In this document: positions 32,968-36,175 of the stretch, one piece after another | Numbering within the stretch: the first letter of the stretch is position 1 | How the letters are laid out: each line of letters opens with the position of its first letter | Sequence record: PZ671982.1 | Source of the DNA: a phage | Direction: 5' to 3' (one strand) | Length of the DNA stretch: 43,947 nucleotides | Notes under the pieces: model-generated | Told to the model about the DNA's origin: nothing | The model's database searches: none | The model's input: the letters and a program-made list of their open reading frames with translations, nothing else | Position numbers and translations under genes: made by a program

Positions 32968-32996
32968 AATCTACTTGGTTGCGCCTAAGCGGTCAA
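32968..32996 (-). promoter_or_regulatory. sigma70-like promoter (TTGACC-17-TAGATT)
   Basis: Read on - strand about 60 nt upstream of ATG 32903; spacer contains CAACCAAG motif. Confidence 0.45.
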
Positions 32997-33007: not shown

Positions 33008-34435
33008 TTAATTTTTTAAATCCTCGTCAGTAGCTTCAGACCACGCGGGGCGCGGGTCGTCGATAGGTGCTAACACCGGTTTAGCAGGTGCGCGCGTGAT
33101 TTTATCACACAGCTTCGCCCACACTTTCGGTTTTTCGTCCTTTAGCACCTTCTCGGCATCTGTTGGGCTGAGCAATGTTTCTTTGTACATCACATCGCGC
33201 TTGATCCGGGCCTTCGTGAATATTTCAATCACTTCGCTCTCGTCCGCCCACTTCCGGATCCCTTCCTTGCCTGCAACCATCTTGAGGCCCAGCGATTCGC
33301 CATCCCCAGCCATTACCGCTTTGAATACCGCGGACTCGATAGCCTTGATGTGCTGGCGCATTGCGTCCAGGCCTTCATATGCCTTGCGCAGTTCCGCCGC
33401 GCTCATAGAGCCGGGGGCCGCTTCTTTCTTGCCACGCTTCGCACGTCGGGCCGCCTTCCGGGCTTCGCGGGCCATATTGCGATCGTGGTTGGCGCATTCT
33501 TCCTCGGTCGCCACGCTCACGTCGTCTCCCAGGTCTTCGTCGGTTGCCGTTGGTGGTGTCATCGTGTCGATTGCAGCCTTCGCCCGGACGCTGCACTGGT
33601 CCGCAAATCTGCACCACTGGCACGCATCAACGCTGGGCCGGAAGTCAGCGCGGGTTAATCCCTTCTTGCCGCGGGCGTATGCATCGAGCGCGGCGATAGC
33701 ACGCTTGGACGCAAACTTCGCGAATATCTCCAGGGCTTCTACCGAAATATCCCACTCTGACGCCCCGCCGCAATACGGCTGGAAGATAACCAGGCGCACG
33801 GTCGTAATGTCGTACATGGTTTGCAGCTTGCGCAGCAGGCCGAGCGCGTACAACATAAGCTGTTTGTTTTCTTTTGCCTCGACCTTATGCCGCCCGGTCT
33901 TCAGGTCGCCCACTATCAGCATGTATGTTCCGTCGGTCTTTTTCATGACCATGACCATATCGGCAGTACCGAACGTTTTAATCCTGTTGCCGTCGATCTC
34001 GAAGCCTGGGTGAAGGACGCAGGTCAGATCGGCGCGCATCTCAAGCTGAACAAACTCCGCCACTTCGAGGAGCGGTCGCCAGTGGTCGATGTACGCGTCG
34101 CACTGTTTCACCATGTCGTCGTTGACCAGTACGCCGCCTTTCGGTGCTTTCGGGTGTGCCTTTACCGGTCCCTTGCCTTCGTTCTCGACGTAACATCCTT
34201 TATACGTCTTCGCGGTTATTTTCTTCTCACCGGCGATAATGCGGTTTAGCACCACTTCAGATACGGTGTGCGTACTCGTACCGTTAATCGCCGCTTGCCC
34301 GGATTCGTTCGGGATATCTTTTTCCACCACCAGGGCGGCGGGACACCCCATCCACTTTTTAGCACCGGATGGGCCAAGTAATGAGTGTTCCGTATTGCTG
34401 CCGGATTGCGTTTTGCGTTTTGGTTTAATCGCCAT
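33008..34435 (-). CDS. Cas4/RecB-like PD-(D/E)xK exonuclease with Fe-S cysteine cluster
   Basis: VGDLKTG...QLMLYALGL nuclease motifs; N-terminal Cys plus C-terminal CQWCRFADQC as in Cas4-type four-Cys clusters; 475 aa. Confidence 0.65.
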   Translation of the reverse strand: MAIKPKRKTQSGSNTEHSLLGPSGAKKWMGCPAALVVEKDIPNESGQAAINGTSTHTVSEVVLNRIIAGEKKITAKTYKGCYVENEGKGPVKAHPKAPKGGVLVNDDMVKQCDAYIDHWRPLLEVAEFVQLEMRADLTCVLHPGFEIDGNRIKTFGTADMVMVMKKTDGTYMLIVGDLKTGRHKVEAKENKQLMLYALGLLRKLQTMYDITTVRLVIFQPYCGGASEWDISVEALEIFAKFASKRAIAALDAYARGKKGLTRADFRPSVDACQWCRFADQCSVRAKAAIDTMTPPTATDEDLGDDVSVATEEECANHDRNMAREARKAARRAKRGKKEAAPGSMSAAELRKAYEGLDAMRQHIKAIESAVFKAVMAGDGESLGLKMVAGKEGIRKWADESEVIEIFTKARIKRDVMYKETLLSPTDAEKVLKDEKPKVWAKLCDKITRAPAKPVLAPIDDPRPAWSEATDEDLKN

Positions 34436-34613: not shown

Positions 34614-34865
34614 TTATTTCGTCTCCCAGCGGTCAATTGTTTTTGCTTCGGATGCAACGGCGAAACGAACATATTCCAGATTGGAGTCCGCCCAAATATA
34701 AAAGTCGGGATTGGTAAAGGTGGTGCGCTTAATTTGCGCGGGGGTGTTGCGGCGTTTATCAATTACGGCAACGCGTGACTGAAAGCTGCCGATGCGTTCG
34801 AATAACCAATAATATGGGCGCTGGTCGCGGGAATCCACAGCCTCGATTAGCGTGAAGCGTGCCAT
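34614..34865 (-). CDS. hypothetical early protein (83 aa)
   Basis: ORF with RBS GAGGA, immediately downstream of an intra-operon terminator. Confidence 0.5.
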   Translation of the reverse strand: MARFTLIEAVDSRDQRPYYWLFERIGSFQSRVAVIDKRRNTPAQIKRTTFTNPDFYIWADSNLEYVRFAVASEAKTIDRWETK

Positions 34866-34885
34866 TGTCTCGTCCTCTAAAAATA

Positions 34886-34909
34886 GGCCCGCAGATTGGC
34901 GGGCCGGAA
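34886..34909 (-). terminator. rho-independent terminator/attenuator on - strand (GGCCCGC-caatct-GCGGGCC + TATTTTT)
   Basis: 7-bp perfect stem + T-rich tail between first early gene and rest of operon. Confidence 0.55.
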
Positions 34910-34913
34910 TATA

Positions 34914-35345
34914 TTAATCTTCCAGTTCGAAATAGGTTTCGACGATTTCTTTAAGATCTTTGTGGAAGTCTTCGACGTCGTCATCTTCCAGCTTGGCGAT
35001 TGATTTGATCTCGAACGCTTCCAGCAGGTCGTCAAATTCGTCGTTCGCATCGTCGTCATCACCGCCTGCGATAATCGCGGCATACTGTTTGATCTCGTCG
35101 CGCATCTCTGCCAGCGGATCGGCATCTTTCTTACCTTTGCCTTTCGCCGTGGCTTTTTTACCTTTCGCCGGTTTTTCGTCTTCGGCTTCTCCATCGTCGT
35201 CATCTTCTACGACTTCTTTTTTCGCTTTAGACGGCTTCTTGTCTTCCTGTTTACCAACGGCAGCGCCCACAGTTTCATAATGTTTAGCGATGGTTTCCAG
35301 TGCTACTACGCCGCGAGTAATCAGGTTTACGATTTGTTCAAACAT
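34914..35345 (-). CDS. highly acidic first-early protein (candidate DNA-mimic / anti-restriction)
   Basis: 143 aa from ATG 35345 (RBS GGAG); D/E runs DDDDGEAEDE, GGDDDDANDEFDD, EDDDVED; first gene after leftward early promoter. Confidence 0.55.
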   Translation of the reverse strand: MFEQIVNLITRGVVALETIAKHYETVGAAVGKQEDKKPSKAKKEVVEDDDDGEAEDEKPAKGKKATAKGKGKKDADPLAEMRDEIKQYAAIIAGGDDDDANDEFDDLLEAFEIKSIAKLEDDDVEDFHKDLKEIVETYFELED

Positions 35346-35541
35346 GGTATATCTCCGATTGGTTAAGTTTAGGTGTCGACCATTAACTTCGTCGGTGGCC
35401 TTAACATAGTGCCTGGTTGCGCGTTCTCCCTTTCGGGTAGTGGACCAGGTTATATAATCACGGTTGGGAATCCTGACACTTCGATCCGGCCCCTGCGTTG
35501 CCCCTCTCCAGTTTGCGTCCTGCATCCTGTCGACGAGGTGA

Positions 35542-35570
35542 ATATTAAATTGGTTGCAGAAGGGAGTCAA
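35542..35570 (-). promoter_or_regulatory. leftward early promoter (TTGACT-17-TAATAT)
   Basis: Hexamers read on - strand; about 190-nt leader to ATG 35345. Confidence 0.5.
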
Positions 35571-35684
35571 CAACTAATTTCAAAAAAAGCGCCGAGGCAA
35601 AATGCAACGGCGCTAACCAATAAGAGACAATGAGACGGGAATTATTATTACACGCGCGCGCGCCCGTTTCAATATCCAAAGGAG

Positions 35685-35713
35685 TTGACACTGTTTATTT
35701 TTAAGCATAGTAT
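35685..35713 (+). promoter_or_regulatory. rightward promoter (TTGACA-17-TAGTAT)
   Basis: Consensus -35 and near-consensus -10 about 35 nt upstream of ATG 35747. Confidence 0.55.
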
Positions 35714-35746
35714 GCGACCTGCACCCCGAACACACGAGACACAGCA

Positions 35747-36175
35747 ATGAGCACAAACGAGACCTTAAATCGCTGGAACCATAAGAAATGGCCCCACCAA
35801 ATTAACCGCGCCACCGAGGATGATAATACCATCGCTTTCGGCGATATGGACGCGGACCCTATGACCCCTGAGCAAATAGCCGCCGATGTGCTGTCAATGG
35901 ACCGACATACGGCTTCGGAAATAATCGTTGCTCTGATAAACGAAATAAGCGGCAGCTATAACGAACTGAATGACCTGTACGCGGAGCTTGACCTGTTGAA
36001 AGGTGGTGCTATCGCAGCGGTGCGTAAATCCGAAGAGGCAGCACGCGAGATGGCTATCGCCCGCGAGAAATATATGCCTGTCGTTAAGCGCCTGCGTGCG
36101 GAAGGCTTGTCATGGAATCAGATCGCCGAGATGACTGGAATCAACCGTTCTACAATCCGCCAGTGGGCTAAATGA
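35747..36175 (+). CDS. HTH DNA-binding protein (putative regulator)
   Basis: 142 aa; C-terminal GLSWNQIAEMTGINRSTIRQWAK helix-turn-helix-like segment. Confidence 0.55.
   Translation: MSTNETLNRWNHKKWPHQINRATEDDNTIAFGDMDADPMTPEQIAADVLSMDRHTASEIIVALINEISGSYNELNDLYAELDLLKGGAIAAVRKSEEAAREMAIAREKYMPVVKRLRAEGLSWNQIAEMTGINRSTIRQWAK

Follow-up and report, generated by a model that had tools for sequence, protein, structure and literature searches.

A stretch of phage DNA 43,947 nt in length (sequence record PZ671982.1, referred to here as the window) carries on its minus strand, between positions 35570 and 34878, a promoter, a leader of about 190 nt, a gene for a small acidic protein and a terminator-like hairpin. 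Sequence comparison indicates that 160 nt of the leader (35375..35534, minus strand), beginning at the predicted transcription start, form a structured non-coding RNA, in which helices are maintained by compensatory changes and no reading frame is conserved. The locus thus appears to hold two uncharacterised items: a new structured RNA motif that coliphage genera share by horizontal exchange, and a conserved, adaptor-like acidic protein of a replication module. With modest confidence, a little above even, we read the region as the promoter-proximal unit of the Dhillonvirus replication/recombination operon, composed of promoter, structured RNA, acidic protein and terminator. The original prediction, made from the letters of the window, had proposed this promoter, a leader of about 190 nt, an acidic open reading frame (ORF) of 143 amino acids (aa) and a terminator, and all are present on the minus strand. 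The leader has the predicted length, from the expected transcription start near 35535 to the ATG at 35345, but it had been regarded as a plain leader, and this view is not borne out, since 160 nt of it are a conserved structured RNA.

Alignments across phage lineages show about 80 invariant bases in the 160-nt RNA. The invariant blocks include GGAGAGG, ACGCAGGGGC, UCAGGAUUCCCAACCGUGA, AGAACGC and CGACGA, and the segments between such blocks vary yet stay complementary. The predicted fold, read on the minus strand, is closed by helix P1 (35534..35529 with 35380..35375) and contains hairpin P2 with the loop AGGAC (35524..35514), helix P3 (35504..35500 with 35399..35394), the invariant hairpin P3a (35498..35460), a tentative helix P4a (35455..35451 with 35408..35404), helix P4 (35449..35444 with 35417..35412) and hairpin P5 with a GAAA loop (35440..35426). 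A covariance model, R1, was built from the leader RNA alignment and gave scores of 154-189 bits on 45 copies (31 from IMG/VR and 14 from metagenomes), with everything else below 16 bits. In the model-fitted alignment (A7), which is biased towards R1, standard pairs occupied 88.5% of cells, as compared to 32-47% (maximum 47.5%) with slid partners; both sides had changed at 15 of the 39 pairs, and four different pair types occurred at each of two P4 positions.

Because the model-fitted alignment leans to the model, the helices were rechecked in an alignment-free manner with the invariant blocks as anchors. P4 was found as CCAGGT/ACCTGG, CCTGGT/ACCAGG, CCCGGT/ACCGGG, CATTGG/CCAATG, CGCTGG/CCAGTG, CTATC/GATAG and CATGAT/ATCATG; with a further variant seen by eye in the alignments, CGCAC/GTGCG, the versions of P4 total at least eight. 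The stem of P5 was CCC/GGG, GCC/GGC, CCG/CGG or CTC/GAG, and its loops were mostly of the GNRA type. P3 alternated between GGAGC/GCUaCC and GGGGC/GCCaCC, while P1 took the forms GTCGAC/GTCGAC, GACGGGC/GCCCGTC, GGGCGGCG/CGCCGCCC, TAGGGCG/CGCCCTA and TGAGGCG/CGCCTTA. G-U pairs are confined to the sense strand, consistent with an RNA that is co-transcribed with the genes.

The leader could in principle be conserved for a different reason, as the coding sequence of an N-terminal extension of the acidic protein, and a 219-aa ORF is indeed open from a TTG at 35573. In Dhillonviruses the frame in phase with the ATG is free of stops across the leader, and versions of 207-239 aa are annotated in several GenBank records (P0006, P0058, P0065, P0073 and P0078). 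The TTG, however, lies upstream of the -10 box, invariant runs of at least 20 nt disregard codon positions, the helices covary, and phages without the RNA begin the acidic protein at the same MFEQ. Across all lineages no frame stays open, the Warwickvirus copies having stops in all three, and the 219-aa ORF is therefore considered incidental. A coding leader is extremely improbable, and the extended acidic proteins of 207-239 aa that run over the RNA are probably annotation errors.

The RNA is not confined to Dhillonvirus. A sensitive DNA search with the region gave matches in unrelated phages that were restricted to the leader and fell in unannotated DNA. The carriers outside Dhillonvirus are Warwickvirus (T1-like), Jilinvirus (Arya, PT1 and IME279), HeidiAbel_Bas97, Serratia phage MQ-4, BUCT618 and 'Pseudomonas' phage Motto. 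In each carrier the gap that holds the RNA measures about 250 nt; the RNA points the same way as the genes on either side of it and starts a few nucleotides past a -10-like hexamer. The proteins encoded behind it are unrelated between lineages, with no shared downstream gene. About 146 records hold the RNA at 90% identity or more to the window copy, and about 26 more hold diverged copies. Conversely, two Dhillonviruses, 'rolling' and LM40P1, lack exactly the segment 35377..35525 (minus strand), as shown by gaps in blastn coverage of the window against both genomes and by the sequences themselves, whereas promoter, Shine-Dalgarno spacer, acidic gene and terminator are all kept there. A search of RNA-less Dhillonvirus loci (L140 and L141) with R1 gave no match, and the deletion site in LM40P1 is GTCGAAACGAC, a small hairpin formed from the P1 arms. 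Since the RNA is present in unrelated coliphage groups and missing in two Dhillonviruses, these comparisons identify it as an optional, horizontally exchanged module.

Cellular genomes and plasmids were also searched. The RNA was not found in 5,426 complete Escherichia coli genomes or in 72,556 PLSDB plasmids, and 185,579 species genomes contained one true copy, L028 (QFQS01000013.1), on a 42.8-kb contig of a 'Cereibacter sphaeroides' metagenome-assembled genome (MAG), which is probably a phage binned into the MAG. The genome, metagenome, E. coli and plasmid searches revealed no additional lineage of the RNA, and a loose two-block DNA pattern run on IMG/VR was abandoned after it returned about 100 chance loci, none of which scored with R1. 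Rfam 15 has no match in the window at the gathering score and none overlapping the RNA at E ≤ 10; for copies of the RNA from three other lineages there was no match at E ≤ 1. The GenBank records inspected carry no RNA annotation of the element. We did not find a published description of the RNA or of the acidic protein; this negative does not extend to a catalogue from 2023 with some 10,000 candidate viral RNAs (PMC10690425), which may list the motif. The RNA resembles ROOL, GOLLD and the csRNAs of that catalogue, large or complex and functionally uncharacterised, in being phage-borne, in having been found by conservation and covariation, and in having many invariant nucleotides. It is much smaller than ROOL and GOLLD. 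It was found in enterobacterial siphoviruses only, and is predicted to lie always at the 5' end of an mRNA.

Some minor features of the carrier records were noted. A GC-rich hairpin without a U-tract stands about 15-20 nt past the RNA in PT1, HeidiAbel and MQ-4 (L024:2684-2701, L027 ~2680-2700, L004 ~2655-2680) and, speculatively, might mark a processed 3' end or serve as a processing or stabilising element. Small coding sequences are annotated over the RNA in HeidiAbel and PT1 (L004:2535-2654, L024:2498-2704), probably in error; records that call small ORFs atop the RNA, or that extend the acidic protein over it, can now be corrected. Unexpected host labels stand on two records of Dhillonvirus or Drexlerviridae type, H80 (Campylobacter phage A144) and H78 (Pseudomonas phage Motto), and H11 (P-GXEC-L2P5) is 88.6 kb, twice the normal genome length, with the region at two to three places; these oddities suggest mislabelled or concatenated assemblies.

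The surroundings of the RNA place it at the head of an operon. The window is a Dhillonvirus: Escherichia phage HK578 is 95.9% identical over a 1.8-kb stretch around the acidic gene, and this stretch is matched by 176 phage records, nearly all of them Dhillonvirus. The HK578 record lists the acidic ORF as gp44, 'hypothetical protein, similar to gp46 of Sodalis phage SO-1', followed on its 3' side by gp43, gp42, an exonuclease, a gp2.5-like SSB (a protein that binds single-stranded DNA) and a DNA polymerase; upstream of gp44, on the opposite strand, are a helix-turn-helix (HTH) protein and a replicative helicase-primase. On the minus strand of the window, the RNA is followed by an unstructured spacer (35346..35374) with the Shine-Dalgarno sequence GGAG at 35356..35353, and then by the gp44 equivalent, the acidic gene of 143 aa plus stop (34914..35345; phrog_3127 of PHROGs, labelled 'function unknown'). 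Beyond the terminator, the first gene is the gp43 equivalent (34614..34865), which encodes 83 aa and belongs to phrog_4965, also labelled function unknown; the gene for a PD-(D/E)XK exonuclease (33008..34435) comes after gp43 and gp42.

Transcription of this unit would start from a sigma-70-type promoter, TTGACT-17-TAATAT (35542..35570, minus strand), which matches the consensus at 9 of 12 positions and is annotated in HK578. The consensus scan gave five sites, as compared to 2.3 +/- 1.6 in shuffled sequences, so that the match alone is not above chance. At the equivalent position relatives have TTGACA or TTGACG with TATTAT, which are nearer the consensus than the sequence of the window, and it is this conservation in relatives, not the match itself, that makes the promoter call credible.

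At the other end of the unit, the hairpin GGCCCGC-CAATCT-GCGGGCC (34905..34886) has seven G-C pairs and runs into TATTTTTA (34885..34878), the whole element occupying 34878..34905 of the minus strand. In an 11-kb scan for terminator-like hairpins it was one of the two highest in G+C, and its stem is invariant among close Dhillonviruses (HK578, 'rolling' and LM40P1). The homologous gene of a relative with 34% protein identity (L158) is followed by AGCCCGC-AGAC-GCGGGCT and TATTTTT, and that of a relative with 54% identity (L159) by GGGCGGC-GCAA-GCCGCCC and AACTTTT, a weaker U-tract. By its G+C-rich stem, its U-tract and its conserved position, the hairpin after the acidic gene is predicted to be an intrinsic (Rho-independent) terminator. 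The strong terminator that the original prediction placed between the acidic gene and the genes downstream is present, and the regulatory anatomy is supported, in that the promoter is conserved and the hairpin recurs in diverged relatives with other stems. The acidic gene is also the first gene of the operon in this phage, as had been claimed, but it is the second in L158 and in another distant relative, L162. Its early or immediate-early expression is a prediction from the sequence.

It had been suggested further that read-through of this terminator controls the replication genes. A scan found no promoter-like site between the terminator and gp43, whereas one, TTGACC-17-TAGATT (32996..32968, minus strand), lies between the stop of the exonuclease gene and the SSB gene. 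Consequently gp43, gp42 and the exonuclease are at most the genes that depend on read-through, and the suggestion would apply to these three and not to the SSB and the polymerase, which would use their own promoter-like site. This site is in line with the SSB-promoter mutations reported for escape mutants of related SECphi phages, and the SSB and polymerase of SECphi4, SECphi6 and SECphi18 are reported to be mutated in phages that escape the Retron-Eco8 and Borvo defences (10.1101/2022.08.27.505566). The terminator may set an excess of the acidic protein over gp43, gp42 and the exonuclease. Such an arrangement, with a G+C-rich hairpin and U-tract between the first gene and the enzyme genes, resembles the partial terminators within operons that set expression ratios, but differs from them in that the hairpin is not universal in the acidic-protein family.

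Several observations weigh against the reading of this region as a conserved unit built around a structured RNA. Two distant members of the acidic-protein family are without the terminator, the hairpin of L160 lacking a U-tract and L162 having no intergenic gap. The folding energy of the single RNA sequence is no better than that of shuffles (z = -0.1 to -0.4), and the minimum free energy fold of the window copy conflicts with the covariation model; thermodynamic stability, with z near 0, was dropped as a proof of structure. Because the single-sequence energies are unremarkable, the case for the structure rests on comparative data, which come in part from the alignment fitted to the model (A7). 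The invariant P3a offers no covariation, and one change in a Dhillonvirus breaks a predicted P3a pair. Finally, when the ORFs of the window that are missing in the RNA-less Dhillonviruses were compared with the loci of other carriers, no protein was found that convincingly co-occurs with the RNA.

What the RNA might do can be approached from its position and its spread. It would form the 5' end of the transcript, as a multi-helix fold closed by P1, and its invariant core would bind a conserved host component and not be tuned to the gene behind it. Its action could be in cis, on the transcript that carries it or the complex transcribing it, or in trans once it has been released. We tentatively propose, as one possibility among several, that it represents a new class of accessory RNA which unrelated virulent coliphages exchange, with a core that attaches to a conserved host factor and neutralises or redirects it. 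Candidate factors are defence proteins, RNases, RNA polymerase and global RNA-binding regulators. If true, the RNA would be the counterpart of protein anti-host factors, made as the first nucleotides of an early transcript.

The possibility first considered was that the RNA is a cis-acting processive antiterminator like put of phage HK022, which would modify the very RNA polymerase that had made it, so that this polymerase passes the terminator behind the acidic gene. The put RNA is about 70 nt in length with two stem-loops, and the leader RNA, like putL, is located directly behind a promoter (PMC9378689). The likeness to putL and putR extends to a folded, conserved core at the start of an early operon that has terminators downstream; an invariant core would suit a conserved host target such as RNA polymerase, and a strong terminator lies about 630 nt downstream on the same transcript. 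This idea was down-weighted on three grounds. The RNA-less 'rolling' and LM40P1, a natural if indirect experiment, retain both the terminator and the downstream genes, so that the RNA is dispensable where the terminator is kept. In Warwickvirus and the Jilinvirus-type phages there is no internal terminator within about 1.5-2.5 kb past the RNA. In the HK022 genome the best R1 score is 13.7 bits, inside the holin gene, and there is nothing at the early promoters. The leader RNA is also unlike put in its architecture, with 160 nt and a multi-helix junction in which a closing helix encloses at least five further helices. We regard a put-like role as quite unlikely; the natural deletion and the lack of internal terminators in other lineages favour a self-contained host-binding module over a function in read-through.

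Complex, highly conserved folds in 5' untranslated regions are typical of riboswitch aptamers, and the leader has such a fold, as would be expected if it acted in cis on the acidic gene as a riboswitch or translational operator. No expression platform was found, there being neither a terminator nor an anti-Shine-Dalgarno pairing past P1, and the spacer and Shine-Dalgarno sequence are identical in the phages without the RNA. The downstream genes differ by lineage, and the RNA is absent from bacterial genomes and has no Rfam match. Given the missing platform and the unrelated genes behind the RNA, it is not taken to be a gene-specific riboswitch or operator, and we consider this role very unlikely. 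Two narrower identities were also discarded. A CsrA site in the P2 loop (CAGGAUG, AAGGAUU or CAGGAC) would not explain the conservation, as one GGA loop cannot account for 80 invariant bases, and a tRNA-like element, suggested by ACCA-like tails after P1, has no T-arm or anticodon arm.

The function of the RNA is directly testable in E. coli K-12, because Dhillonviruses with and without the RNA provide natural near-isogenic controls. Its carriers include E. coli model phages in wide use, several phages of the BASEL collection among them; one of these is the Dhillonvirus Bas14 TheodorHerzl, whose genome matched the RNA (H125).

The second item of the unit, the acidic protein, starts at the ATG at 35345 and has 42 Asp and Glu residues, 22 Lys and Arg residues, a net charge of -20 and a pI of 4.4. 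The strong acidity ascribed to it previously, and the acidic runs then quoted, are present in the translation. The C-terminal 68 residues account for nearly all of this acidity (net -20), and lysine runs offset the acidic stretches of the central part, leaving the linker at +1. Three segments are distinguished on the minus strand from the family alignments A1 and A9, the charge of each segment and an AlphaFold2 model: an N-terminal helix (aa 1-30; 35345..35256), a Lys/Asp/Glu polyampholyte linker (aa 31-75; 35255..35121) and an acidic three-helix C-domain (aa 76-143; 35120..34917). With a deep alignment, AlphaFold2 predicts the C-domain as a three-helix bundle with pLDDT 91-96, the N-terminal helix at 72-75 and the linker below 50, as for a disordered segment.

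Close homologues were found in Dhillonvirus-like contigs only, at about 115-180 aa when the longer annotated versions are set aside, and their lengths differ because K-rich and acidic repeat units have been gained or lost in the central part of the protein. The corresponding part of the gene (35121..35255; A1 columns 38-116) is marked repeat_region in some GenBank records. When 1.84 billion representatives were searched with a profile made from the C-terminal 70 residues, 38 clusters (50% identity) were retrieved. All but one of these are small proteins (212 aa or less) that have the domain at their C-terminal end, and in three it is present twice. The full-length members share the three-segment architecture. 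Their N-terminal helix has the consensus MLEKFLALLERFVVAHELIAANS, in which L8, R11, V13, A15, E17 and A20 are almost invariant. Among full-length members the linker is a balanced polyampholyte of 25-89 residues with a mean net charge of -0.6. The C-domain of the family has about 68 residues and a mean net charge of -13, as compared to -20 in the window phage. The protein has no Pfam, NCBIfam or PDB sequence match. A Foldseek search against the PDB returned nothing at E < 0.5, and fold searches gave generic helical bundles only; BFVD holds uncharacterised homologues in Edwardsiella phage eiAU, Salmonella phage St162 and phage MB78.

The gene was found in every Dhillonvirus genome examined, including several BASEL phages. 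All five contexts compared, which extend to about 30% identity, show the same order of the module: helicase-primase and HTH genes are on one strand, the acidic gene diverges from them, and it is followed by zero to four small ORFs, a DUF2800 PD-(D/E)XK exonuclease, an Enc34/gp2.5-type SSB and PolA. With the same neighbours in all five contexts, the acidic gene belongs to the core of a replication/recombination module and is not a variable accessory gene. Anti-restriction genes, in contrast, are usually located among variable accessory genes.

These properties bear on a rival function for the protein, that of a DNA mimic made first and in excess to block a host DNA-binding enzyme, either in restriction, as with Ocr and ArdA, or RecBCD, as with Gam and T7 gp5.9. 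The original prediction had named the Ocr/ArdA case, with restriction or other DNA-binding host proteins as targets. Like T7 Ocr (gp0.3) and ArdA, the protein is small, very acidic, helical and promoter-proximal in an early-looking operon. It concentrates a charge of -20 on 68 residues of a compact helical domain, and its gene has a terminator behind it. The gene is also situated just upstream of phage exonuclease and annealing/SSB genes, which recalls lambda, where gam precedes bet and exo. The lack of fold matches is compatible with mimicry as well, since DNA mimics, to our knowledge, have no common fold.

Other evidence is less favourable to mimicry. Searches across the PDB by sequence and by fold linked the protein to none of Ocr, ArdA, Gam and gp5.9: phmmer and profile runs over every PDB chain, Ocr and ArdA included, returned noise only, and Gam and gp5.9 gave no match by sequence or by fold. 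The best-conserved part of the protein is the uncharged N-terminal helix, and the build of helix, linker and C-domain, together with core membership of a syntenic replication module, sets the protein apart from Ocr and ArdA. Moreover, the BASEL study reported the Dhillonvirus phages as comparatively sensitive to type I and type II restriction-modification (PMC8594841). We think that this is not an anti-restriction protein of the Ocr/ArdA type, a claim for which no positive support emerged, and DNA mimicry in general, though not negligible, is unlikely.

The acidic protein would rather be a protein-binding accessory or adaptor of the replication module, or a binder of a basic, nucleic-acid-binding partner. 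Knowledge of its binding target would fill a gap in a module that is common to Dhillon-like, Jersey-like and eiAU-like phages. The C-terminal domain of lambda Red-beta and Orf/NinB are three-helix modules that dock exonuclease and SSB. A kinship with the Red-beta C-domain, hinted at by fold, was unsupported by profiles (hhalign probability 0.1%), and no profile-level homology of the acidic protein to the Red-beta C-terminal domain or the Orf family was found. A marginal match to a Sak single-strand annealing protein (E 0.18) was taken as noise. An identity with a SECphi18 'AdfA' was rejected, as AdfA comes from RB69 (PMC11257639).

The control region upstream of the unit has further features. 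Just upstream of the TTGACT promoter is another promoter-like site, TTGAAA-17-AATAAT, which has a TG upstream (35672..35644, minus strand) and is followed by a terminator, AGCGCCG-13 nt-CGGCGCT plus T6 (35614..35582, minus strand). The stem of this terminator covaries, being ATCCCCG/CGGGGAT in LM40P1, and L159 has a different, 12-bp terminator in the equivalent place. Together, the site and its terminator could yield an sRNA-like transcript of about 55 nt or could insulate the main promoter. Single-stranded CAUUGUCUC of that transcript has its complement, GAGACAAUG, at the gp43 start codon (34873..34865), a complementarity of 9 nt only that may be due to chance.

Beside the control region is the HTH protein (window 35702..36167; gene 35747..36175, plus strand), which matches Pfam HTH_23 and is labelled 'transposase' in PHROGs. 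Its gene is missing in both RNA-less Dhillonviruses, a co-absence with the RNA that involves two genomes only, and in 'rolling' its place is held by a gene annotated as a Gam-like nuclease inhibitor. No homologues of the HTH_23 protein were found near the RNA in other lineages. In the Jilinvirus-type and MQ-4 copies, an inverted repeat stands directly upstream of the -10 box of the RNA promoter (L004:2450-2480, L005, L024, L027:2471-2490). This repeat covaries (TTTACC..GTAAA, GTTTAC-ATGA-GTAAAC, TTTAA-GAAG-TTAAA) and could be an operator or a hairpin.

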